Positions 5,349-17,425 of a stretch of DNA of 64,000 nt are shown piece after piece. This DNA comes from a virus (Duplodnaviria; Caudoviricetes), in IMG/VR virus record IMGVR_UViG_3300036985_003045. One strand, 5' to 3'. Positions within the stretch are counted from its first letter, which is position 1. Every line of letters starts with the position of its first letter. Under the pieces are notes generated by a model. That model did not search any database. It was given only the letters and a program-made list of their open reading frames with translations, and had not been told where the DNA came from. The position numbers and the translations under genes are program-made.

Positions 5349-6752
5349 TTACATTAAGTTAGTAACTTTAACGATTCTGTAATAGTAATTTTTACGTGCT
5401 GTCATTGAATTGTCAGCATTTGAAGTAGCAGACATTGAAGCGTCATCAATATCAACCATTGGGTTAGCAACCATACCGTAACGAGTTTTAAAACCAATTT
5501 TAGGTTGGAAAGTTTGTGGATCAACCGCACGAACCATTTGCAATGGAACATATGGGCAATAGAACAAACCTGCATCAAATGCAGAAGTACCTTTATAACC
5601 TACAGTAAAGAATTGTAGACCTGCACCAGAAGGATTGTTACCACCTGTGTAAGGATCAACATAAACTTTATATTTGCCGTTTAAGATACCAGCAAAAGTA
5701 GTAGATGCTTCATCAACATTCAAACCAGTAGAAAGAGCAGGAGCATAATCTAATACACCAGCCATTGCTAAAGCAGAAGCAACATCTGAAGAACAGATGA
5801 TGAAGTTACCACGTCCACGACGTGTTTGTTGAGCGATAGCGTTAGCTTCTCTTTCAATTTGGAACAACAAACCTTTGAATTTTTCAACTGACCAACGACC
5901 ATTAGAGTCAACGTCAAGATCAAAAATACCAGCAGTAGCAGTACCAACAGCAGCACCTTGTTTAGCAACAGTGTAGATAGTACGAATTACTTCACGGTTG
6001 ATTTCAGCAAGAATTTCAGTAGAAAGAATTTTGCTCAATTCGCCTTCAGCGTCAAGACCATGAACTGATTTCAAGTCTTGTGCTAATTCGATAGAGTATT
6101 CAGCTTTCAATGCACGAGTTTTAGCAACAACTGAAGTTTTTTCAATTGAGAATGCCATTTCAGGAAATGCTTCACCTGAAGTAGAACCTAAAATTTCAGC
6201 ATTAGCAGTAGACAAACCTAAACCAGTTTGGTATGTACCAGTTGATAAACCAGTAGCGCCGGTAGGATCAGTACCAGTAGCGCCTGAAGTACCAGTAAAG
6301 CTAGTGTTAGCTTCGTTAAACAATGCTTCTGTTCCACTTGGACTAGTGTAACGAGATTTCATTGCAAAAATCAAACCAGTTGGTTGAGTCATTGGTTGAA
6401 CACCAGCAACATCATATGCAATCAACTGAGGCATAGCACGACGTACTAAGTTAATCAACACAGGATCAAAACCAGCTACACCACCAGTACCAGCAGCGCC
6501 AGCATTGTATGTACCAGTACCAGTAGTATTGACACCATAGTTGCCACCACCACCAATGTTAGTAGAAACTCCGCCTGTACCAGCTTCGAAAAGCATACCG
6601 TTAGCTTGGCTAGCAGCATTCATTTCACGTTGTTGGTTTTCTAGGATAACTGCTAAGTCACCACGACGAGTATAGTCTTTAATTGCAGGAGCGCCATCAG
6701 CGTCAATTACAGGAGCCCATTTTTCTAAAAGGGCAGAACGATTTAATTCCAT
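5349..6752 (-). CDS. gp23: Major capsid protein gp23
   Basis: FDPVLINLVRRAMPQLIAYDVAGVQPMTQPTGLIFAM, KTRALKAEYSIELAQDLK, FYCPYVPLQM, FQPKIGFKTRYG. Confidence 0.98.
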   Translation of the reverse strand: MELNRSALLEKWAPVIDADGAPAIKDYTRRGDLAVILENQQREMNAASQANGMLFEAGTGGVSTNIGGGGNYGVNTTGTGTYNAGAAGTGGVAGFDPVLINLVRRAMPQLIAYDVAGVQPMTQPTGLIFAMKSRYTSPSGTEALFNEANTSFTGTSGATGTDPTGATGLSTGTYQTGLGLSTANAEILGSTSGEAFPEMAFSIEKTSVVAKTRALKAEYSIELAQDLKSVHGLDAEGELSKILSTEILAEINREVIRTIYTVAKQGAAVGTATAGIFDLDVDSNGRWSVEKFKGLLFQIEREANAIAQQTRRGRGNFIICSSDVASALAMAGVLDYAPALSTGLNVDEASTTFAGILNGKYKVYVDPYTGGNNPSGAGLQFFTVGYKGTSAFDAGLFYCPYVPLQMVRAVDPQTFQPKIGFKTRYGMVANPMVDIDDASMSATSNADNSMTARKNYYYRIVKVTNLM

Positions 6753-6778: not shown

Positions 6779-7879
6779 TTATTGGTTATATTGTTGTAAT
6801 GCTTTAGCATACGCAGCAACAGTAGGATCAACATTAACATATTTGTTTTCTTTGATTTCATCTACTGGAGAATCAGTAACAAAAGATTCTACCAAAGCGC
6901 TTTGTTTGCCTGTGAAATAGTTTTCACGAATTGTTTGTACTTTTACTTTAAATGTATCTTCAGCATCATAAGATAATTCTTCTACTAATGCAATAAATTT
7001 TTCAGTTTCTGTATCAGTCAAACCTTCGCTAACCATACTTACAATTTCTTTACGAACTGATTCAGAAAGTGATTTCTTCAAATCAATATTTCTTTCAACT
7101 TGTTCATTTAACTTAGACTCTAGTACATCAATCTTAGTTTCCATTTCACCGATAACGTCGTACTTTTCTTCAGGAACATCAATATAATGTTCTTCAAAAA
7201 GGCCTTTCATACCAGTAATAAAGGATTCCATGATGTCAGACTTAAGTCCATTTTCAAGGGCTATTTCATTCTGTTCTATCCACTGCTCAACAACATAGTC
7301 GAGGTAACCATCAATTTTTTCAACCAGACCCTCAGTAATTGAATCTACTTGCTCAGCAAGTTTTTCTTCAAATTCTTCTTCTAAACGTGCAACTTCTTCT
7401 TTAACACGTACAACCACAGCAGACTCGAAAATAGTCGCTGCTTTTACTCTAAACTCTTCAGATAAAGATTCACCAAACATTAAAGCATCTACATCGGCAG
7501 AAACGTCAACTTGGACATCAAATTCTTCTTTAGTTAGTTTGTCAGTTGCTTTAGAGATGCCTTTTTGTCTTTTGTCTATCTTTCTTCCATGATATGCTGC
7601 ATTAGCAATATCACTCTTTTCTAAAGAACCTACCATATTAATTCCATGAGAAGCAAGTTTGCCAGATGCTTTCTTAACATAAGAACCTAAAGTCGCTTTT
7701 GATAATTCAAACAGTGCTTGTTCATCTTCATCTAAAGAATCAAATTCTTCTTCAGTGATGAAATCTTCATCTAATTCTTCAGTGATGAAATCTTCATCTA
7801 ATTCTTCTTCGTTTTCTAAAACTAATCCTGCCAATTTGGATTCTTCCATAATCTCAGCGATTTTGCTATCAATAGACAT
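6779..7879 (-). CDS. gp22: Prohead core scaffold gp22 with an extra basic module at aa ~56-120
   Basis: LSEEFRVKAATIFESAV, VEKIDGYLDYVVEQW...NEIALENGLK; acidic; between gp21 and gp23. Confidence 0.9.
   Translation of the reverse strand: MSIDSKIAEIMEESKLAGLVLENEEELDEDFITEELDEDFITEEEFDSLDEDEQALFELSKATLGSYVKKASGKLASHGINMVGSLEKSDIANAAYHGRKIDKRQKGISKATDKLTKEEFDVQVDVSADVDALMFGESLSEEFRVKAATIFESAVVVRVKEEVARLEEEFEEKLAEQVDSITEGLVEKIDGYLDYVVEQWIEQNEIALENGLKSDIMESFITGMKGLFEEHYIDVPEEKYDVIGEMETKIDVLESKLNEQVERNIDLKKSLSESVRKEIVSMVSEGLTDTETEKFIALVEELSYDAEDTFKVKVQTIRENYFTGKQSALVESFVTDSPVDEIKENKYVNVDPTVAAYAKALQQYNQ
7748..7807. repeat. 27-bp perfect tandem duplication in gp22 (EELDEDFIT x2)
   Basis: ttcttcagtgatgaaatcttcatctaa at 7748-7774 and 7775-7801, plus a partial third copy. 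Confidence 0.9.
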
Positions 7880-7909
7880 TTATATACTCCTAATTTTGAT
7901 ATATCTTAT

Positions 7910-7917
7910 TATTTATA
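7910..7917 (-). promoter_or_regulatory. Late promoter TATAAATA (gp22-gp23)
   Basis: Exact consensus in the gp21-gp22 intergenic region. Confidence 0.8.
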
Positions 7918-7929
7918 AAAATTAAACTT

Positions 7930-8580
7930 TTACTTAATGTTACGTAAAAAGTGTTGAAAGGCAAGTATTTTTTGCTCTTCTAAATTAATTGATGTTGCTT
8001 TTGTTATTGTTCTTCTAGCTTCATCAACATGTTTCTCAAACTTTCCATCAACATAAACCCAAGATGCACCTTCCATGATTCCTTGAACCCAAGCATCTGG
8101 AGCAGATGGATCACTTACTAAATCGCCTGCAGTACTTAACATAAAATCATTTTGTACTACATTAACACCTTCATTGTTCATTTTTAATGAACCTAAAGCG
8201 CGACTTGACGTACCAATTCTTCCACCACCTTTAAGAATACCTTCGGCAATTCTGCCCATAGGAGTATCAAGAATCTTTGCCTTTCCAATCCAATTATTAC
8301 CTTCTTTTCTTAAGTTAGTAATTAGATGTGAAATTCTGTCAAGATTAATTGAAGGCGATTCAGGATGTCCTAATTCGCCAAATGCAGAATTCTTTTCTAC
8401 TTTTTCTTTAATATATCGTTGAACTTCATTATCCATAATTGATTCTGGATACATTCTTCCATTACGATTCTTGATATTTGATTGAAGAAATACTCCTTCT
8501 ACATAAAGTTGTTTACCTTTACCCAGTTTTTCCTCTACAATCATATTTAATGATTCGTTAACTTCCCTAATTAGTTTCAT
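7930..8580 (-). CDS. gp21: Prohead protease gp21
   Basis: VEGVFLQSNIKNRNGRMYP, GELGHP, LDTPMG, SSRALGS, DLVSDPSAPDA. Confidence 0.96.
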   Translation of the reverse strand: MKLIREVNESLNMIVEEKLGKGKQLYVEGVFLQSNIKNRNGRMYPESIMDNEVQRYIKEKVEKNSAFGELGHPESPSINLDRISHLITNLRKEGNNWIGKAKILDTPMGRIAEGILKGGGRIGTSSRALGSLKMNNEGVNVVQNDFMLSTAGDLVSDPSAPDAWVQGIMEGASWVYVDGKFEKHVDEARRTITKATSINLEEQKILAFQHFLRNIK

Positions 8581-8581
8581 A

Positions 8582-9256
8582 TTAACTTCCGTATACTAAT
8601 TCGTTATCAAGAGCACCAAATTGAGTGGTCTCTATTTTGCCATAATAACCTGAATTCTTTCTAACTTTAATCCAAATTTCGCCTTGGACTGCCGCAGCAA
8701 GTTTATCTACAATAGTAACACTGATAGGATATGTTGCATTGATATTATCAGGTGGGAAATAAGTACCCATCATATCAATAAGGTTACCATTATCTGCAAG
8801 AGGAGTAACAATACGAATACCATTTCTATCTACTTTATATATAGCACCAGGTTCGCCTGCCCATTGCACAGCAGTAATAGAAACAGATGGAGTACCAATT
8901 ATAACTTGTGTAGCATATTGAATTTTATAAGTAGTACCTGCTATAGCTACAGCACCATTTGCAGATAATACAGCATTAGTTGCATCAGTAACTGAAGTGA
9001 TAAGACCAACATAAACACCGGCACTAGTATATACTTTAGCATTGACATGAACATTAGTATCAAAACTTGTTCCTACACCAACAATTGATGTAGCACCTGT
9101 ACCTATTGTTACAGTTCCTGCACCAACAATAATATTGGCATAAGGTAACAAATCTGTCGTTAAATTTATTATAGATGCTGCAGTATCTGAACCTGCAATT
9201 TTAATAATTGCCTCAGTTTCTGATGCTTTAATAATGGTTTTTGTTAATGCTGCCAT
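8582..9256 (-). CDS. Hypothetical head-cluster protein with an inserted beta-rich module
   Basis: 224 aa, in operon between the gp68-like gene and gp21. Confidence 0.6.
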   Translation of the reverse strand: MAALTKTIIKASETEAIIKIAGSDTAASIINLTTDLLPYANIIVGAGTVTIGTGATSIVGVGTSFDTNVHVNAKVYTSAGVYVGLITSVTDATNAVLSANGAVAIAGTTYKIQYATQVIIGTPSVSITAVQWAGEPGAIYKVDRNGIRIVTPLADNGNLIDMMGTYFPPDNINATYPISVTIVDKLAAAVQGEIWIKVRKNSGYYGKIETTQFGALDNELVYGS

Positions 9257-9258
9257 CT

Positions 9259-9816
9259 TTATTCCTTAATGATTACATCGAGTATTTTTAGGAAGTTATC
9301 CGAACTTTCTTTCATGAACTCGACAACCTCTACTTTATTTTCTAGTAAGTTATTTATATCTTGTTGGGTTTGAATATCTATTGCAATAACTGATTCATCT
9401 TCTAGAATGTAATGTATTTTACCATTAATAATAGAATCAAATTCATTCATTTCACGAATATTAGAAACAACTGGATCAATAGAAAAGGATTTGTCAGAAG
9501 CTATTTTAATATACTGTTCGACTATTTTATTCGTGACTTTGATATTATGTTCTTCTTTAATTATGTCGGCAATTTTTAATATATTTTCAGAAAAGAATTC
9601 TTCATGTAAATTATTGATAATATCTTTTGCTTGCTCTGAATATTTAATATAATTTTTTGCTTCTGACAAATTTTTAAATTGAGTTACTTCATTATTAATT
9701 AGTATATTATTATCATTAGTTCTCTGAATAGTATTACCAAAGTAATGGGCACACTCCTGTATACCCATACCTGATACCGTTTCTTTTAACTTTTTAGAAA
9801 ACTGTGAATAATACAT
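9259..9816 (-). CDS. Putative prohead core protein (gp68-like position)
   Basis: Synteny between the gp67-like gene and gp21; sequence not clearly recognised. Confidence 0.45.
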   Translation of the reverse strand: MYYSQFSKKLKETVSGMGIQECAHYFGNTIQRTNDNNILINNEVTQFKNLSEAKNYIKYSEQAKDIINNLHEEFFSENILKIADIIKEEHNIKVTNKIVEQYIKIASDKSFSIDPVVSNIREMNEFDSIINGKIHYILEDESVIAIDIQTQQDINNLLENKVEVVEFMKESSDNFLKILDVIIKE

Positions 9817-10658
9817 TAGTCTTTAGTCATTTTGTCGACTGCTTTACCAATACCTTTTTCGCGTTTAGAAGCAATTTGACCAGATTTTGACCATTTTTCG
9901 CCTTTACCTAGAGCTTCACCACTAATAATAGCATTTGTAGTGGCTTTCTTTACATAAGAACCTAGAGTCTTTTTAGACAATTCGTCTAGTTGTTCAAACT
10001 CTTCTGACATCATAAAATCTTCTAGTTCTTCAATTGAATAATCTTCAAGAGCGAATTCTTCTTTAGTCAATTTACCAATTGCTGTAGCAACACCTGCTTT
10101 TCTATTTTTTTCTTTTCTCATTGTCTTTTCATCACGAGAATAAGCAAACGCATCAGCATCGCCACGACCTGATTTGAAATTAGAAGCTGCAGTATGTTTC
10201 ATCAATTGATCATGAGCTTTATTTACATAAGAGCCTAGAGTCTTTTTGCTTATCTCATCAAGTTGTTCAAAGTCTTCAGACATCATAAAATCTTCTAGTT
10301 CTTCAATTGAATAATCTTCTAGAGTAAGTTCTTCTAATTCAACTTCTTCTCTAGTTAATTTTTTCTTTGCTTTTGCTTTTTCTTGATCGATAAAACTTTG
10401 AGTAGTTCCACCTTTAGCATGGTGTTTTATTAATTTATCTTTAAATTTTGGATGTTTAGGATCCCATGTTTCATATGCATCGCTTGAATCATATGATTCA
10501 TCAACTGAACCAAACATACCTTGAGCAACATCAACTCTCATACTATCTAAACGGTCAGATATTTTACTAGCCATTACAGAGTTAAAACTATCTTCAATTG
10601 CTAACGTATCGCCTTCAGCAATTGATAACACTAAATCTCTAATTGATTCTTTCAACAT
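9816..10658 (-). CDS. gp67-like prohead core protein extended by repeated acidic-linker/basic modules
   Basis: N-terminal ~50 aa (DLVLSIAEGD...FNSVMASKISDRLDSMRVDVAQGMF) resembles gp67-like proteins and follows gp20; internal duplication. Confidence 0.6.
   Translation of the reverse strand: MLKESIRDLVLSIAEGDTLAIEDSFNSVMASKISDRLDSMRVDVAQGMFGSVDESYDSSDAYETWDPKHPKFKDKLIKHHAKGGTTQSFIDQEKAKAKKKLTREEVELEELTLEDYSIEELEDFMMSEDFEQLDEISKKTLGSYVNKAHDQLMKHTAASNFKSGRGDADAFAYSRDEKTMRKEKNRKAGVATAIGKLTKEEFALEDYSIEELEDFMMSEEFEQLDELSKKTLGSYVKKATTNAIISGEALGKGEKWSKSGQIASKREKGIGKAVDKMTKD
10006..10319. repeat. 41-bp identical direct repeat within the gp67-like gene (EDYSIEELEDFMMS)
   Basis: gacatcataaaatcttctagttcttcaattgaataatcttc at 10006-10046 and 10279-10319. 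Confidence 0.9.
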
Positions 10659-10673
10659 TATTGGTATCCTTAA

Positions 10674-12161
10674 TTATTGGGCACTTTGTGCGTCTTCTGG
10701 TACAGGTGGAGGATTTGCTTTATTTTGAGCAGAAATTTCTTTTATATCTTCATCAGATTGCATTAATACATTCTTCTGAATCCATTCAATACTATAATAT
10801 TTGCCTACATACAAATCAATTTGCTGTAGAGTTACAATACGTTGATTAAGAACTTCACTTTCTTTTAATTCTGAAAAGTAATTATCTTTTTGGAAATCAA
10901 AATGAATACTTTGTTTCATATCGAACCATTCATCATCTCGAATGATACCTTTAGAAATCAATTGTATTCTCAATGCATCTACAAGTAGATTAGAAAACTT
11001 TTTACGTAATCGTGTAACAAATTTATTAAACTTAACTTCTTCACGAGTAATTTCAGTAGAACGACCTATACTAAAACCTTGAGAAGGTTGTAATCTTCCT
11101 AAAGGAACATTCAAAGCTTGATATAATTTACTTTGAAAGTATTGTACATCTTCTATTTGACCTAGAGTTTGTCCGCCTGGTAAAGTAGTGATTTCTGTAC
11201 CCTTGCCGCCTTCTCTTCTTGGCATCCAGAAATCTTCCATCATAGACAAATGTTTACGATCATCTCTTGTTTCACCAGTAGTAGCATCATAAACAATTTT
11301 ATTACGAAACTTATTCATAATATCATTTACATACTGTTCTGCTTTTAACTTAGGTAAGTTACCCACATCAATATAGAATATACGTCTTTCAGGTGCTCTA
11401 GATATCCGATATATTACTACAGCATCTTCAATCATTTTTAACTGATTGGTAGGTTTAACTGCTTTATGTAGATGACCTAAAGTCATCCCTGAATTAGGAT
11501 CTATTAAACCGCTCGGGCAATAGATAACTGAATCAAGAGATAGTTTAACACCTTGTGATGTTTGCTCACTAATTCCTTTATCATTATAGATGTAAAATTC
11601 ATCTATAGATTTAACAACATCAATACCTTTTTCATTACGTTGTTTCATTACGTTCTTGATCTTTCTTATTTTTCTTGGATCAATTTTACGTAATTCTGTA
11701 ATACCTTTTTTGATATTAGCAGGATCAATTAATACTTGATAGTATACTCTACCATCTATGTACCATTGACGGAAAATGTCTGGACCGAATTCTTCGAAAT
11801 CAAATAGTTTTAATACTTCTTCGAATTCATCGGTGATTTTTTTCTTAATACCATCTGAAACTTTTAAATTATCCAGATTAAGTTCAATAGATTTATCATC
11901 TTCAGTTATAATTGATTCATTAACAATATCTGTTATAGCAGAATCACAATCAGAATATTGAGCAACTTCTCGGTATCGACGGATAAGATCATTTTCATTC
12001 TTGACAATAGAATCCATATCAAGAACAAGACCATAATAATTCGCAGCACCTGATGCTGTTGTTATTACAGTACTACCGTCTTCCGAACTTGGTGGAACTA
12101 CACTAAGCGGATTTTCCTTGACGGATTTCTTCTTACCCAACTCGATACCAAAAATTTGCAT
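10674..12161 (-). CDS. gp20: Portal vertex protein gp20
   Basis: WYIDGR, IDPRKIRK, YRISRAPERRIFYIDVGNLPKLKAEQY, MEDFWMPRREGGKGTEITTLPGGQ. Confidence 0.98.
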   Translation of the reverse strand: MQIFGIELGKKKSVKENPLSVVPPSSEDGSTVITTASGAANYYGLVLDMDSIVKNENDLIRRYREVAQYSDCDSAITDIVNESIITEDDKSIELNLDNLKVSDGIKKKITDEFEEVLKLFDFEEFGPDIFRQWYIDGRVYYQVLIDPANIKKGITELRKIDPRKIRKIKNVMKQRNEKGIDVVKSIDEFYIYNDKGISEQTSQGVKLSLDSVIYCPSGLIDPNSGMTLGHLHKAVKPTNQLKMIEDAVVIYRISRAPERRIFYIDVGNLPKLKAEQYVNDIMNKFRNKIVYDATTGETRDDRKHLSMMEDFWMPRREGGKGTEITTLPGGQTLGQIEDVQYFQSKLYQALNVPLGRLQPSQGFSIGRSTEITREEVKFNKFVTRLRKKFSNLLVDALRIQLISKGIIRDDEWFDMKQSIHFDFQKDNYFSELKESEVLNQRIVTLQQIDLYVGKYYSIEWIQKNVLMQSDEDIKEISAQNKANPPPVPEDAQSAQ

Positions 12162-12191
12162 ATTTTATCTCAAAATTATAATGAAAAATGA

Positions 12192-12794
12192 TTAGAAACT
12201 AAATGGAATTGTTCCAACTGGAGTATCAATTGATATGTTAGTACCAAAAGAAGCACCATCAGTATCTGTACCAGTATTTGATGTAAAGTAGTTATATGTA
12301 AATTCTACATCAAAAGTTTCAAGTTGGTTTATTACATCAAAGTCTAATTGAATAGGACTAATAGTTGTTGGATATGCATCAGCAAATTTATATACTTTTA
12401 AAGTAGCACCATTACGATCTAATTGATGAACTTCTAAATCAACTTGATAATCAGAAGGATTTGTTTTACCTTCAGTAGCTGCATATCTTTGAATACCTGA
12501 CTGCCAAGATTCAAATGCATTACGTAAACCAAATGTTGTATCATTAATAAGTGTTACAGTCCATGGTTGGAAAGTACGTTCTCCTGCAATATTAACAACT
12601 CTACCTCTGTACGGAACTTCTACATTAGTTATAGTAGATCCAGGAAGTTGAGCTGCTTTACATAAGAATTGTGCTCTTGATCCTTCAAATGCGCCGGCTG
12701 ACACATAAGCCGGAAAATTTAAATATGCTCTAAATTGATTGGCTCTTGCTCCGCCTCCAATCAACTGAGATTTAAAATCTGATATATTTGCCAT
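12192..12794 (-). CDS. gp19: Tail tube protein gp19
   Basis: GGGARANQF, FLCKAAQLPGS, YRGRVVNIAGERTFQPWTVT, VHQLDRNG. Confidence 0.95.
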   Translation of the reverse strand: MANISDFKSQLIGGGARANQFRAYLNFPAYVSAGAFEGSRAQFLCKAAQLPGSTITNVEVPYRGRVVNIAGERTFQPWTVTLINDTTFGLRNAFESWQSGIQRYAATEGKTNPSDYQVDLEVHQLDRNGATLKVYKFADAYPTTISPIQLDFDVINQLETFDVEFTYNYFTSNTGTDTDGASFGTNISIDTPVGTIPFSF

Positions 12795-12824
12795 TTTTTA
12801 TTCCTTAGGTGTATGACTTTATAT

Positions 12825-12832
12825 TATTTATA
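12825..12832 (-). promoter_or_regulatory. Late promoter TATAAATA (gp19)
   Basis: Exact consensus between gp18 and gp19. Confidence 0.8.
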
Positions 12833-12840
12833 GTTAAAGC

Positions 12841-12862
12841 TGGGAGTGTATTTCAACTCCCA
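12841..12862 (-). terminator. Hairpin / probable weak terminator after gp18
   Basis: TGGGAGT-N8-ACTCCCA stem followed by only GCTTT. Confidence 0.55.
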
Positions 12863-12870
12863 AATACTAA

Positions 12871-14793
12871 TTAACCGCCAATTTCAGAGAAACTAATACC
12901 ACTTCTTACTGCTATAAAGTTTAAAGTAATATAGTTAATTGATCGTGCAGGTTTAACATAAATATCGCCTACAAATTCATTACGATCAATTACTTCACCG
13001 GTATTATTAGTATCATCACAAATTACTCTAAAATCAATAACACCACGACGACCTTTAACATCTCTCAAAAATGGTTCAACAATATTTTTGAATTGAGCTC
13101 TTGTAAATGCATCATTAAATTCGAATAATTGATATTTAGATGCAGTAGCAATTGCTTTTTCAAGAACAATAAACAATCTACGAACATTGATACGATCAAA
13201 TGCAGATGGTTTTGCCAATAATGTTTTATCACCAAATAATACAGTGCCTTGTCCAGGAAATGTAACTACTGGATTAACGCCATTTTTATATACAGAATCT
13301 CTATCTATTTTAGATAAATTAGCGGCAAGTTTAACAACATTTTTAACTTGACCTCTATTATAACCTGCAGGAGACCACCAAGCATCATTAGTATAATCAG
13401 TACGTGCAGTCATACCGGCGATATCACCATTTAGTGGTACCCAACGATATTTATCATTATAACGATCATATTGATACTTATAACCAGAATCCATAATACC
13501 ATAAGAAGATGATGTTAATCCATTTCTATAAGCATTAATTTTATCAGTCACAGTAGAACCTGAACCAATAATAGCATCGCCGGTAGATATATCTTGTGGA
13601 GATACAAATACAACACAATCTTTACGAACTTCTGCAATATTTTGAATTACATAATTTGCAGTAATAAAATTTGATTTACCTACTGGTATTAAGCTAATAT
13701 CATATTGACTATCGTTTAAATATAATTCCCAAGATGTTACTGCATACGCGCCATCAGAATCAACAAAGTCATCTAGAGCGCCTGAAAATGAATCATTCAA
13801 AGCTCCTTTTAAAGGAGCATATGAAGCACTTGCAACTACAGCAGTACCCCAAGCAGTACCTGTACCGGAAATATTTGCAGTATGATCCATCCACCAAATA
13901 TATTGTGAACGTGTATTAATTACTTCTTTATAATAGTTAATTGTACCATCATATTTTTTAGCATCTGATACTTTTGAAACATAAGCAAATTTTTCTAGAA
14001 TTGTACCTTTTATTCCAGAGAATACACCATCTTCATCAATAACAATAATATGTAATTCATCATAAAGAGCATTAGAATTAGCAACATAATCTGAAGTTCC
14101 AGGCGCAGAATCAAATTGAGCATTATATGCCCAGTCAGCTTTCAATGCAGTACCTGCAGGAACAGAAATTACGGATCCAGGAGCTTCTAAAGTTAATGAA
14201 GTATTAGATTCAATAGATTTAACAGTACCAATAATTACACCAGCATCTGTTTTAAGGATAGCTCCTACATGAAGTTCTGTAACAAACAGTGTACTTACAC
14301 CAACAACAGTAGTTCCACCAATAGGAACAATACTTGAAGATGTAACACTAGACAAAACTAAATTTTTAAATGTTAGTCTATCCGCCATTGAAACTTTCAA
14401 TGAATTACCTAAAATACCTGCATATTTTGCTGCCCATAAGCAGTCATATGTTGAGGTAACTAAATCATCATAAGCATCTACATTTTTAATTTTAACAGCA
14501 GTACCACCGGTACTGACGGCATTAACTGAAGCAAGAGAATCAATTCTAGATATGTATAGACTGTTTGTATATGACAAAAAGTTTGCTGCAGTAAAAAATG
14601 ATTCAAAAGTACTATCATTAGGTTTGCCAAATTGTTTTATTAATTCGACTTCTGATGATAATTGTACTGGGTATTCGATTGGACCCCACTGGAACTTACC
14701 TGCAAATGCTCCAGTAGATGATGAAACAGCTGGCACAATATTAGTAAAATCTTTCTCTACTATTGTAACTCCTGGCGATAGTGCATATGCCAT
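12871..14793 (-). CDS. gp18: Tail sheath protein gp18
   Basis: LSPGVTIVEKD, FQWGP, WWSPAGYNRG, GDKTLL..PSAFDRINVRRLF, KPARSINYITLNF. Confidence 0.97.
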   Translation of the reverse strand: MAYALSPGVTIVEKDFTNIVPAVSSSTGAFAGKFQWGPIEYPVQLSSEVELIKQFGKPNDSTFESFFTAANFLSYTNSLYISRIDSLASVNAVSTGGTAVKIKNVDAYDDLVTSTYDCLWAAKYAGILGNSLKVSMADRLTFKNLVLSSVTSSSIVPIGGTTVVGVSTLFVTELHVGAILKTDAGVIIGTVKSIESNTSLTLEAPGSVISVPAGTALKADWAYNAQFDSAPGTSDYVANSNALYDELHIIVIDEDGVFSGIKGTILEKFAYVSKVSDAKKYDGTINYYKEVINTRSQYIWWMDHTANISGTGTAWGTAVVASASYAPLKGALNDSFSGALDDFVDSDGAYAVTSWELYLNDSQYDISLIPVGKSNFITANYVIQNIAEVRKDCVVFVSPQDISTGDAIIGSGSTVTDKINAYRNGLTSSSYGIMDSGYKYQYDRYNDKYRWVPLNGDIAGMTARTDYTNDAWWSPAGYNRGQVKNVVKLAANLSKIDRDSVYKNGVNPVVTFPGQGTVLFGDKTLLAKPSAFDRINVRRLFIVLEKAIATASKYQLFEFNDAFTRAQFKNIVEPFLRDVKGRRGVIDFRVICDDTNNTGEVIDRNEFVGDIYVKPARSINYITLNFIAVRSGISFSEIGG

Positions 14794-14852
14794 TTAAATT
14801 CTCCTAAGAAATAATATTCTGGGTATACGATGAATCATTTGATTCATTGTAT

Positions 14853-14860
14853 TATTTATA
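14853..14860 (-). promoter_or_regulatory. Late promoter TATAAATA (gp18)
   Basis: Exact consensus upstream of gp18. Confidence 0.8.
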
Positions 14861-14872
14861 AAAACTAGTATT

Positions 14873-16474
14873 TCAGAAATTGAGAAGCATAATAGGTGCT
14901 TCTAATTCTATTTGTCCATCATCATAAAAACCGAATGGTGTTAATTCTTCTTCAATTAATCTCATTTGATTTTGATACATTATTTGTCTAAGTTCTACGT
15001 TATTTAATTCTTTAAAATATGGTTGAGTTGTTAACCATGAGAAAATAACGAGACCCATTACTAAATCATCCTTATAACTATCATCCGCTGCATATGAATC
15101 TTTAACTTCAATAAAAGTAGATAGTTCAGAAATAGTATCCATATCATTAATAAGCAATTTATTTTCTACTAATAATGATTTTAAATTGGCACAACCAATT
15201 CTTTTAGTTTTTTTATCAGTGTTTACACCTAAATATGGTCTGCCACCAAATCCACCTCCGGCAGATTGTCCTTTATCTAATCCCTTTGGTTTTTTATTTA
15301 TAATAATCATATTTTCATATTCTAACTCATGATGTAAAATATGTGCCACCTGTTCAGATATATTTATCTCAATTAAAACATGTGCATTATTATAATCTTT
15401 TGCTACTTTATATATTATATTTGGAAATAATAAAGGACTTATATGATTATCTTTATACTTAGCAACTTGTTTGTATGGTATTTCTGATATGTCAATCACT
15501 TGAATTACCGAATTATCACCACCGACACCTTTAGACGGATCAACTGTCATTACATAATTTCTGCCTCTTTCAGGTGCATCAAAAACATCTAATCCTTCTC
15601 TTGTATATTCAATAACACTTGGAGTTAGTTTAGATAAAGTATCAGGCGGTATCAAAGTTAAACTAGAACCTAAAAATGAACATTCAACTTCTTGGCAGTA
15701 CTTAAGATCACCTAATTGTCTTCGTTGTTCTTCTGCCCAAGCAGCATCTCTACCTGGAATTTCCCAATAAGGAATAAACAGCGGTATAAAGTCATTATGA
15801 CCTTTTTCTGCATCTGTCCAAAACTTCCAAAAATGATTATAACCAAGTGGAGTAGAACTTAGTAAAATTTTAGATGTTTGTCCTGAAGAAATTGTAGGAT
15901 AAACAGAAGTAAAAAACTCATCAGCTACTGTATTTGGAATAAAAGCAGTTTCATCAATATAAAGCATATTAACGGTTTTACCACGAATACCAGAACCTGT
16001 AGTAGCAGCGGTAAATACTTTTGACTTATTTTCTAATTCAATATCACCTTTATTCCAAGTTGTTACTCCACATTTTAACCAATCAGGTAATAACTCAAAC
16101 ATTAGTTGAAGTCTACTCATTACCTCTCTTGCTGCAGCAGATTTATTTGCAAGAATTGCTACATTTTTGGCATCATTAAAATTAACATACCAAAGAATAT
16201 ATGCTGCAGAAGTTTGAGTTTTACCCTGTTGACGACCTTCCATGAGAATAACTTTACGATTCTCATGTATTATCTTTACCTTTCTTTTTTGGCAATCATA
16301 AAGATTAAACGGTACAATACCGTGGTCAATTGAAATAATTTTACAATAACTATCTATAAAATAAATAGGATCTTGTGCACACTTAATATATTCTTGTACT
16401 TGTTCTTGAGTATATTGAACTTGTACATTTGCTGCTTTTAAATTAGGATTGCTATTATATGTTAATGATGCCAT
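14873..16474 (-). CDS. gp17: Terminase large subunit gp17
   Basis: YNSNPNLK, GRQQGKT (Walker A), LYIDETAFI, STPLGYNHF, DDLVMGL; uninterrupted. Confidence 0.96.
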   Translation of the reverse strand: MASLTYNSNPNLKAANVQVQYTQEQVQEYIKCAQDPIYFIDSYCKIISIDHGIVPFNLYDCQKRKVKIIHENRKVILMEGRQQGKTQTSAAYILWYVNFNDAKNVAILANKSAAAREVMSRLQLMFELLPDWLKCGVTTWNKGDIELENKSKVFTAATTGSGIRGKTVNMLYIDETAFIPNTVADEFFTSVYPTISSGQTSKILLSSTPLGYNHFWKFWTDAEKGHNDFIPLFIPYWEIPGRDAAWAEEQRRQLGDLKYCQEVECSFLGSSLTLIPPDTLSKLTPSVIEYTREGLDVFDAPERGRNYVMTVDPSKGVGGDNSVIQVIDISEIPYKQVAKYKDNHISPLLFPNIIYKVAKDYNNAHVLIEINISEQVAHILHHELEYENMIIINKKPKGLDKGQSAGGGFGGRPYLGVNTDKKTKRIGCANLKSLLVENKLLINDMDTISELSTFIEVKDSYAADDSYKDDLVMGLVIFSWLTTQPYFKELNNVELRQIMYQNQMRLIEEELTPFGFYDDGQIELEAPIMLLNF

Positions 16475-16489
16475 AATAAAACTAATCTA

Positions 16490-16684
16490 TTAAATAGATC
16501 GTCTTTCCTTATCAATTTTAACATTTACTTTAGTGATTGCTTTATTAGCACCGGTAATACGTGTACGCGCTTTATCCATATCACCTTTTTCAATTGCAGA
16601 CCGCCTTTCTACTTCATTTTTATCAAGATACTTATTTAATGTACTCTTTGATAATTCTGAAATTAATTCTTTATAACTTTTCAT
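16490..16684 (-). CDS. Putative internal head protein with T4 IP-like capsid-targeting sequence
   Basis: N-terminus MKSYKELISE resembles the T4 IP CTS (MKTYQEFIAE), followed by an LSKSTL module shared with gp22 and the gp67-like protein. Confidence 0.6.
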   Translation of the reverse strand: MKSYKELISELSKSTLNKYLDKNEVERRSAIEKGDMDKARTRITGANKAITKVNVKIDKERRSI

Positions 16685-17425
16685 TTAAAATTCCTCTAAC
16701 CAAGACTCTGATATAATACTACCATCTATAGGATCACCAATAGCAGTATAATTAGCAGTAGATTCATTAGTAACAATATCATTAATATTAGCTTTAACAG
16801 TAGTAATAATACCACTTGTACTATTTCCGCTAAATAAATTTAATTTCAAAGTGAAATTTAATGTATGAGTTACAAATCTTCTAGTAGTAAAATCTCCATC
16901 ATAATCATCTTGAACTGAAATGCTATTTAAAATAATAGGAATGTCTTGAATAACATTCATTTCAGGAACCGCATTAATTGATAATGTGTATTCAGGAGTA
17001 AATGTAGGTAAAATTTGTTCTATTATTTGTAATGCATCTTCTTGAGTTTTTGTCAAAATATACAATGAAATATCAAGATTATATGGAACAACAGAACTTA
17101 ATGTACTTAGAGAACTTAAACCATCACCACATTTTATTTGTTGCATTCTATTTGTTTTTCTTACAGAATCATAAGAATAACCGGTAATTTCAAAGGATAT
17201 TCTAGGCAATGACGTATAAGTATGATTTTCAAGAGTAGGATCAGAATCTATTCTTACTATCCATTTTTCCTTAGGTGCATATCCTACGGGAACTTTTAAG
17301 GTTTGAATTGTAGTTCCAGTAACAGAACCACCTTCTTTTCTTTCTATTTTAATATTAGAAAAAAGACTGCCAAAACCAATAATAGTTTTTCTTATAATTC
17401 CGTGATAAAATGGAGTTTCGTACAT
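16685..17425 (-). CDS. gp15: Tail sheath stabiliser / head-tail connector gp15
   Basis: FYHGIIRKTIIGFGSLFSNI, KVPVGYAPKEKW, LPRISFEI, QIIEQILPTFTP. Confidence 0.93.
   Translation of the reverse strand: MYETPFYHGIIRKTIIGFGSLFSNIKIERKEGGSVTGTTIQTLKVPVGYAPKEKWIVRIDSDPTLENHTYTSLPRISFEITGYSYDSVRKTNRMQQIKCGDGLSSLSTLSSVVPYNLDISLYILTKTQEDALQIIEQILPTFTPEYTLSINAVPEMNVIQDIPIILNSISVQDDYDGDFTTRRFVTHTLNFTLKLNLFSGNSTSGIITTVKANINDIVTNESTANYTAIGDPIDGSIISESWLEEF

Follow-up and report, generated by a model that had tools for sequence, protein, structure and literature searches.

The prohead protease gp21 of phage T4 cuts after the Glu of an L/I-X-E motif (PMC9026906), and its substrates include the internal proteins, small basic proteins that are incorporated via the scaffold core at ~1000 copies per head, trimmed once after [LI]xE, kept with the DNA and then ejected (PMC8442874; PMC9026906). 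In the giant phages phiKZ, 201phi2-1 and SPN3US, many internal head proteins are processed by a relative of gp21 that recognizes a short motif and cuts behind its Glu; the propeptides contain several sites and so are cleared, while the mature parts remain in the head (PMC9026906; PMC5694885). Most of what is known of internal head proteins comes from T4 and a few giant phages, and their equivalents in the abundant marine and freshwater T4-like phages were unclear. Here we describe a family of basic modules in a stretch of viral DNA of 64,000 nucleotides (nt), IMG/VR record IMGVR_UViG_3300036985_003045. The stretch as a whole, referred to as the window, has a low GC content (~31%) and is part of a T4-like myophage, whose DNA is closest, among named phages, to that of marine cyanophages, pelagiphages and Methylophilales phages. 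The module occurs once in the head scaffolding protein gp22, twice in a gp67-like prohead core protein and once as a stand-alone gene of 64 amino acids (aa). Because each copy stands right after a protease motif and contains none, the scaffold is probably a vehicle that brings basic peptides into the capsid ready for cutting.

Module copies and protease motifs

A preliminary description of the window had counted four copies of the module, and all four translate as it claimed, from the minus strand (on which all features located below also lie) and at the coordinates that follow. In gp22 (366 aa; 6779..7879; Pfam T4_CASP 1.5e-68, phrog_237 5e-81), the T4_CASP domain spans aa 126-360 (PF25623, 231 bits against a gathering cut-off of 27), and aa 1-125 constitute an N-terminal extension absent from T4 gp22, which places the module outside the domain. 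This extension begins with an acidic tract (aa 1-55; 7715..7879) that holds 8 [LI]xE tripeptides where 3.4 are expected. The tripeptide LFE follows (7706..7714), a putative gp21 cleavage site that conforms to the T4 motif and is identical to the tripeptide preceding AGTGG in the gp23 propeptide, and directly after it comes the module (aa 59-120; 7520..7705; net charge +7).

The gp67-like protein (280 aa; 9816..10658; phrog_5709 8.8e-14, phrog_1064 1.4e-3 over aa 8-73) consists of an N-domain followed by a degenerate basic block and by two units, each made of a leader and a module. The degenerate block (aa 74-110; 10329..10439), which ends KKLTREE, gives a weak partial match to the hidden Markov model (HMM) of the module, corresponding to the C-terminal motif at aa 95-109, and is probably the remnant of a third module. 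It is followed by acidic leader 1 (aa 111-135; 10254..10328), which ends LDE and is part of DNA repeat D1, by module 1 (aa 136-202; 10053..10253; net charge +7, without internal [LI]xE), by acidic leader 2 (aa 203-226; 9981..10052), which also ends LDE, and by module 2 (aa 227-280; 9819..9980; net charge +8), which forms the C-terminus of the protein. The acidic linkers that had been noticed ahead of the embedded copies are real, and the two 24-aa leaders of the gp67-like protein are almost identical. A 120-nt direct DNA repeat with 87% identity (9943-10062 and 10216-10335) covers the leader and the first module motif, and the module middles do not align. The stand-alone gene (16490..16684) encodes a 10-aa leader, MKSYKELISE, and a divergent module (aa 11-64; net charge +7) that retains the family-invariant Tyr, Arg, Gly and Ala.

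An independent HMM, built from 139 modules of other phages and no window sequence and scored on 351 open reading frames (ORFs) of the window, recovered the copies as one family, with E-values of 3.2e-26 for the gp22 module, 1.6e-25 and 8.3e-23 for modules 1 and 2 of the gp67-like protein, and 2.7e-5 for the 64-aa ORF. All of them start, as described earlier, after an [LI]-x-E tripeptide (LFE, LDE, LDE and ISE). This rule was examined across the family in 561 unique full-length modules, drawn from the 150 best, diverse representatives of a profile search: the residue before the module (P1) is Glu in every one of the 561, and the residue three before it (P3) is Leu, Ile, Val or Met in 560. The same P1/P3 pattern was found in 143 of 143 IMG/VR modules, which had been collected with a search pattern that did not include the leader.

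Within the modules, the motif is avoided. Occurrences were counted in the variable middles, where positional conservation cannot bias the result, and expectations were taken from shuffles. [LI]xE was observed once against 48.0 ± 7.1 expected (ratio 0.02, z -6.7) and [LIV]xE 8 times against 72.2 (0.11). The controls stayed close to expectation, with 90 observed and 105.8 expected for [LI]xD (0.85), 31 and 40.4 for [LI]xQ (0.77), 46 and 47.9 for Ex[LI] (0.96), 59 and 49.7 for [LI]E (1.19), and 89 and 92.9 for KxE (0.96). The non-module parts of the same proteins are, in contrast, enriched in [LI]xE 1.69-fold (z +16). Window gp22 contains 23 such tripeptides versus 8.8 expected, with none inside the module, and the window modules combine a net charge of +7 to +8 with zero [LI]xE. 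In a theoretical digest of the window proteins the modules are the only long basic products, namely aa 59-141 of gp22, aa 136-211 and 227-280 of the gp67-like protein, and aa 11-64 of the 64-aa ORF. According to the T4 record, the only [LI]xE in each of IPI, IPII and IPIII is the one at the known cut, and their mature parts are free of it; multiple protease sites have been tied to the clearing of peptides from the head (PMC5694885). A motif ahead of the module together with avoidance inside it suggests that modules have been selected to be excised at the boundary and to stay intact while the protease is active, and such survival would point to a role after maturation.

Family, predicted fold and exchange of the modules

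The consensus unit comprises an acidic leader, EEVEQ[IL]DE, a LSKKTLGSYVKKA motif, a variable stretch of ~30 aa and a KRxKGIxKAxxKLTK motif. Whole modules measure 42-108 aa and have a median net charge of +8, compared with +4 for the whole tandem unit. The conserved ends and variable middle seen in the window copies are found in the family as consensus motifs at both ends with hypervariable middles between them, the latter being of low complexity and hydrophilic, with Ala, Lys, Asp, Ser and Gly making up about half of the residues. With a 98-sequence alignment, AlphaFold2 predicted a basic two-helix hairpin (pLDDT 88), with helices at residues 3-39 and 43-68 of the 76-aa gp22 segment, in which the two conserved motifs would pack together at the open end and the variable part would form the tip.

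A profile search reading all 1.84 billion cluster representatives assigned 6,746 proteins to the family at E <= 1e-3 and 3,781 at E <= 1e-10, and a pattern scan of IMG/VR yielded 353 confirmed module loci. Carriers reach 1,440 aa and have up to 11 matched stretches per protein. Among isolate genomes, tblastn returned cultured-phage matches only to P-TIM68, Caulobacter phage Cr30 (with four module copies in a 682-aa protein), siphovirus S-SKS1 and one single-cell marine virus, so the support comes mostly from metagenomic contigs. Pfam matched 0 of 98 modules and 0 of 8 multi-copy proteins over their module regions at its cut-off (best, DUF7443 at ~20 bits versus 27), and the sole library family matching the module is phrog_5709, labelled "unknown function". 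Apart from the family's own members, fold searches of the PDB and BFVD yielded nothing but generic two-helix matches (all E > 0.01), and comparison of the module profile with solved structures in the PDB found nothing significant. The profile likewise gave no signal against T4 gp22, gp67, gp68, gp21, gp24 or IPI-III. The basic tail of T4 gp68 had been considered as a module homologue and was dropped because it lacks profile signal, leaving analogy alone.

The fetched loci contain three types of carrier: a protein encoded between portal and protease, often with a gp67-like N-terminus; gp22, in which the modules lie in an N-terminal extension that always precedes the T4_CASP domain; and a large charged protein whose gene lies elsewhere. 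Dozens of T4-like head clusters hold modules in the gp22 extension or in the portal-protease slot protein. In about half of the fetched loci (43 of 84, duplicates counted), the carrier gene lies outside the head cluster. At such non-head loci (L013-L087; L002, L003) many phages show a recurring neighbourhood, with a cytidylyltransferase gene upstream of the large carrier and with DUF7207 and a ferritin-like gene (PHROG "DNA binding protein") close by. Peptidase_S77 is present in 8 of 10 contigs that have a carrier outside the head cluster, including siphovirus S-SKS1, and the two contigs without it are 22% and 31% complete.

The 64-aa ORF has a single detectable homologue, 91% identical. Its description as an internal protein bearing a capsid targeting sequence agrees with the leader, since MKSYKELISE and the MKTYQEFIAE of T4 IPII/IPIII are identical at 6 of 10 positions, including Tyr4, Ile8 and Glu10. 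In the T4 sequence, Tyr4 is important for targeting, and Ile8 and Glu10 for processing (PMC9026906). Replacing the P1 Glu of that sequence by Asp is reported to block cleavage. Short leaders ending [LIV]xE directly ahead of the module begin 37 of 120 small module homologues; a few leaders of the small stand-alone module proteins resemble the T4 targeting sequence, and some of these proteins may be fragments or have mis-called starts. The ORF occupies the slot of T4 gene 16, between the gp15-like and gp17 genes, and no small-terminase (gp16) gene was seen between these two genes (16490-17425), TerS not having been sought elsewhere.

The module is not a constant part of the proteins that carry it: T4 gp22, gp67 and gp68 and the gp22 of many relatives are without it, and among relatives gp22 has 0-3 copies and the portal-protease slot protein as many as 5. 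The earlier claim that the peptides are diversifying is supported by a relative (G002) whose gp22 is 95-99% identical in DNA outside the cassette and has a different cassette. In this gp22 (L090:5027-6121), 235 of 244 residues are identical over aa 121-366, and third codon positions outside the cassette show 94.8% identity, whereas DNA identity drops to 32-45%, the random level, over aa 60-115. The replacement is an unrelated basic insert of 70 aa, with a net charge of +5 and no [LIV]xE, placed after the same ALFE-LS junction. A cassette of this type recurs in the gp22 of another relative (L046:5599-6897), upstream of a canonical module. The existence of a second, unrelated ~70-aa basic cassette after ALFE means that more than one payload family uses the slot. 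The gp67-like protein of G002 has two extra inserts, and the middle of its module 2 is strongly diverged, with the ends kept. From these sequence comparisons, what is conserved appears to be a slot, in which the site is followed by a basic peptide that lacks it, and the payload is exchanged by recombination. The acidic tract of window gp22 contains a perfect 27-nt tandem duplication (7748-7801) that encodes LDEDFITEE twice; in G002 the unit occurs once and its flank differs, so the number of repeats is a further source of variation in this tract.

Proposed processing of the modules and rival readings

Considering the observed anatomy, motif statistics, link with the protease and cassette swap, we infer that the modules are T4-internal-protein-like cassettes carried by core proteins, released by the S77 protease and staying with the DNA. 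Cleavage at the module boundary is very likely, survival of an intact module peptide is probable, and its retention in the head is favoured slightly; the chain as a whole we also regard as somewhat likelier to be right than wrong. In this scheme, the unit would be an acidic leader of the EEVEQ[IL]DE type plus a ~60-aa basic two-helix hairpin with a variable tip. Built into the scaffold, the units of gp22 and the gp67-like protein would enter the prohead without needing any targeting of their own, and the 64-aa gene would provide one unit alone, behind a leader like the capsid targeting sequence of T4. Once the shell has assembled, the gp21-type S77 protease would act on every [LIV]xE and cleave behind its Glu, reducing the acidic scaffold to many short peptides that exit the head and releasing the hairpins intact, because no such site lies within them. 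The freed peptides, of 6-9 kDa and a net charge of +3 to +8, would most likely remain with the incoming DNA as T4 IPII and IPIII do; they could balance the charge of the DNA or condense it, and may reach the host together with it. The boundary motifs, internal avoidance and scaffold enrichment thus fit the earlier idea of the scaffold as a polyprotein, and the injected anti-defence role attached to that idea stays speculative.

Several observations weigh against this scheme. The gp22 fragment 59-141 has a net charge of just +1, as an acidic tail kept on some units after a single cut leaves them with a modest net charge. Asp occupies P2 in 430 of 561 modules and the whole leader is conserved, not P3 and P1 alone, so that conservation of [LIV]xE could be partly structural; in the AlphaFold2 model, moreover, helix 1 runs unbroken through the putative cut site. 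The genes of the large non-head carriers lie among replication and nucleotide-metabolism genes, and these carriers may not be virion proteins. Profile searches found no sequence homology of the module to T4 internal proteins or gp68, and a search of the literature on P-TIM68 and Cr30 found no virion proteome for a module-carrying phage. A complex prediction for gp21 with the gp22 leader-plus-module scored 0.00 and, having been run without controls, counts neither way.

The hairpins might instead serve assembly only, binding the acidic tracts of gp22 and the gp67-like protein, the inner shell or the portal, and so holding the core together or setting its size; cuts at their bases would then dissolve the core, and the hairpins would be lost from the head along with the other scaffold fragments. 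In the carriers, which are scaffold or core proteins, the basic modules indeed adjoin strongly acidic tracts, T4 gp68 likewise joins an acidic half to a basic half, and the P22 scaffold binds coat protein through an element of this type, a basic helix hairpin. T4 internal proteins, moreover, are purified together with gp22, and heads assemble more slowly when IPIII is missing (PMC9026906). However, peptides destined to be discarded need no avoidance of the protease site, and one occurrence was found where 48 were expected, beside a scaffold enriched in it. Nor does a role of this kind sit well with the absence of the module from the gp22 of many relatives or with a range of 1 to 11 copies per protein, and its swap for an unrelated cassette in a near-identical phage is hard to square with a precise structural contact. 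An exclusive role in assembly is therefore considered unlikely.

If the peptides were specific injected effectors, their variable tips would be diversifying surfaces directed against host defence or other host functions, much as IPI* of T4 inhibits GmrSD. The hypervariable middles between conserved ends would suit such a role, as would the replacement of a cassette by recombination within a gene otherwise 95-99% identical and the precedent of the T4 internal proteins, a diverse, fast-evolving anti-restriction set sharing only the targeting sequence (PMC3012670). The middles, however, are the low-complexity, hydrophilic segments described above, about half Ala, Lys, Asp, Ser and Gly, the hairpin fold is generic and without an informative structural match, a very high copy number per head would suit a bulk role, and no defence-related neighbour or domain was seen at the loci examined. 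Given the composition of the middles and a copy number that is probably high, a general internal peptide associated with DNA is a better fit than a specific inhibitor like IPI*, and specific effectors appear distinctly improbable. We are just as doubtful of the wider proposal that the scaffold is an effector polyprotein, with a swappable payload slot through which thousands of exchanged peptides are loaded and injected as anti-defence or host-takeover agents. Finally, it is very improbable that the modules are unprocessed, with [LIV]-D-E as the start of a helical nucleic-acid-binding repeat and the large carriers acting on DNA in the cell, for although the 43 non-head loci, with their cytidylyltransferase, DUF7207 and ferritin-like "DNA binding protein" neighbours, and a conservation that spans the leader beyond P3 and P1 are in its favour, it leaves unexplained the avoidance of [LI]xE inside and its enrichment outside the modules, the modules in gp22 and the portal-protease slot protein, the co-occurrence with an S77 protease even in a siphovirus, and the T4-targeting-like leader of the 64-aa gene.

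Should the modules be released and retained as cassettes, scaffold proteins could serve as polyprotein carriers of capsid cargo, site avoidance versus enrichment would provide a rule for predicting which segments of head proteins are retained and which discarded, and a natural swappable slot for packaging peptides in capsids would be at hand. The module would also offer a marker family for annotating thousands of "hypothetical" phage proteins.

The head gene cluster and its comparison with known systems

The minus-strand gene run encodes gp14-like and gp15-like proteins, the 64-aa ORF, gp17, gp18, gp19 and portal gp20, and continues with the 280-aa gp67-like protein, a 185-aa ORF, a 224-aa ORF, gp21, gp22 and gp23. 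The range 7520-16684 assigned to the module family in the preliminary description does contain the module copies, but it also takes in the unrelated gp21, two ORFs, gp20, gp19, gp18 and gp17. The presumed processing enzyme, the gp21 prohead protease (7930..8580; Peptidase_S77, Pfam PF03420 1.9e-38; phrog_207 3.2e-71), is 39% identical to T4 gp21. In the major capsid protein gp23 (5349..6752; Pfam Gp23 1.5e-141), 3 of 4 [LI]xE tripeptides lie within the first 56 residues, the third being the LFE ahead of AGTGG. By analogy with T4, where the gp23 propeptide is 65 residues long (PMC9958956), these 56 residues are the probable propeptide region.

The 224-aa ORF (8582-9256), located between gp21 and the 185-aa ORF and in the same place in relatives, has no Pfam match, a weak match to a PHROG labelled tail fibre and zero [LI]xE, and may, judging from its sequence, be a protease-resistant head component. 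The 185-aa ORF (9259-9816) has a net charge of -11, 10 [LI]xE tripeptides versus 4.1 expected, weak similarity to T4 gp22 (E 0.001) and the position of T4 gp68, and probably encodes a further core protein that resembles a scaffold. The portal (gp20) ORF is about twice its normal length in three relatives, at 910-978 aa versus ~500 (L046:2-2731, L072:2432-5332, L084:2897-5830), which could reflect a fusion, an intein or an insertion.

The gene for the gp67-like protein sits between portal gp20 and protease gp21, as that of T4 gp67 does, and its product has 955 homologues, all unnamed or "hypothetical" except for one with the UniRef label "Prohead core protein". T4 gp67 and gp68 share this slot and are gp21 substrates. 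Against phrog_1064, the T4 gp67 family, the N-terminus of the window protein scores only the weak 1.4e-3 given above and a second family member (P0001) 3.2e-3, compared with 1.7e-30 for T4 gp67 itself, and BLAST of the window protein against T4 gp67 gave no match. T4 gp67 has a poly-acidic tail at its end, where the window protein has basic modules, whereas T4 gp68 consists, as here, of an acidic half and a very basic C-terminal half that follows an LNE tripeptide. Both T4 proteins have been reported to be degraded to small fragments (PMC9958956). The giant-phage substrates of gp21-related proteases are large individual proteins with long propeptides, and not tandem small basic hairpins in a scaffold.

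The P22 scaffolding protein has a small, positively charged, C-terminal two-helix hairpin that binds coat protein; this hairpin is single and essential, and the scaffold is recycled, not cleaved. The modules resemble it, according to the AlphaFold2 model, in being small basic hairpins on a scaffold. Unlike it, they are found N-terminally or in a separate core protein, in varying numbers and each behind a protease motif, and relatives can do without them; the gp22 module, being N-terminal, present in 0-3 copies and replaced in G002, is not a single constant C-terminal hairpin of the P22 type.

A close parallel is with the T4 internal proteins, which like the window modules have a basic mature part with zero internal [LI]xE. 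An N-terminal targeting sequence of ~10 residues ending [LI]xE is, however, common to these proteins and the 64-aa ORF only, the embedded copies having internal acidic leaders. The T4 proteins are mutually unrelated and separate, whereas the modules have a common hairpin framework and most of them form tandem cassettes within gp22 or the gp67-like protein, each equipped with an internal leader and a site. The literature searched contained no description of tandem basic repeats in scaffold or core proteins, nor of the module motif. As a kind of system, gp21-processed internal head proteins are known already; what appears to be new, as judged from the literature searched, is the size of this unannotated family, the near-complete avoidance of the site in its modules, the swaps of cassettes between near-identical phages, and the placing of tandem hairpin cassettes, with an internal leader and site each, in the scaffold and gp67-slot proteins themselves.

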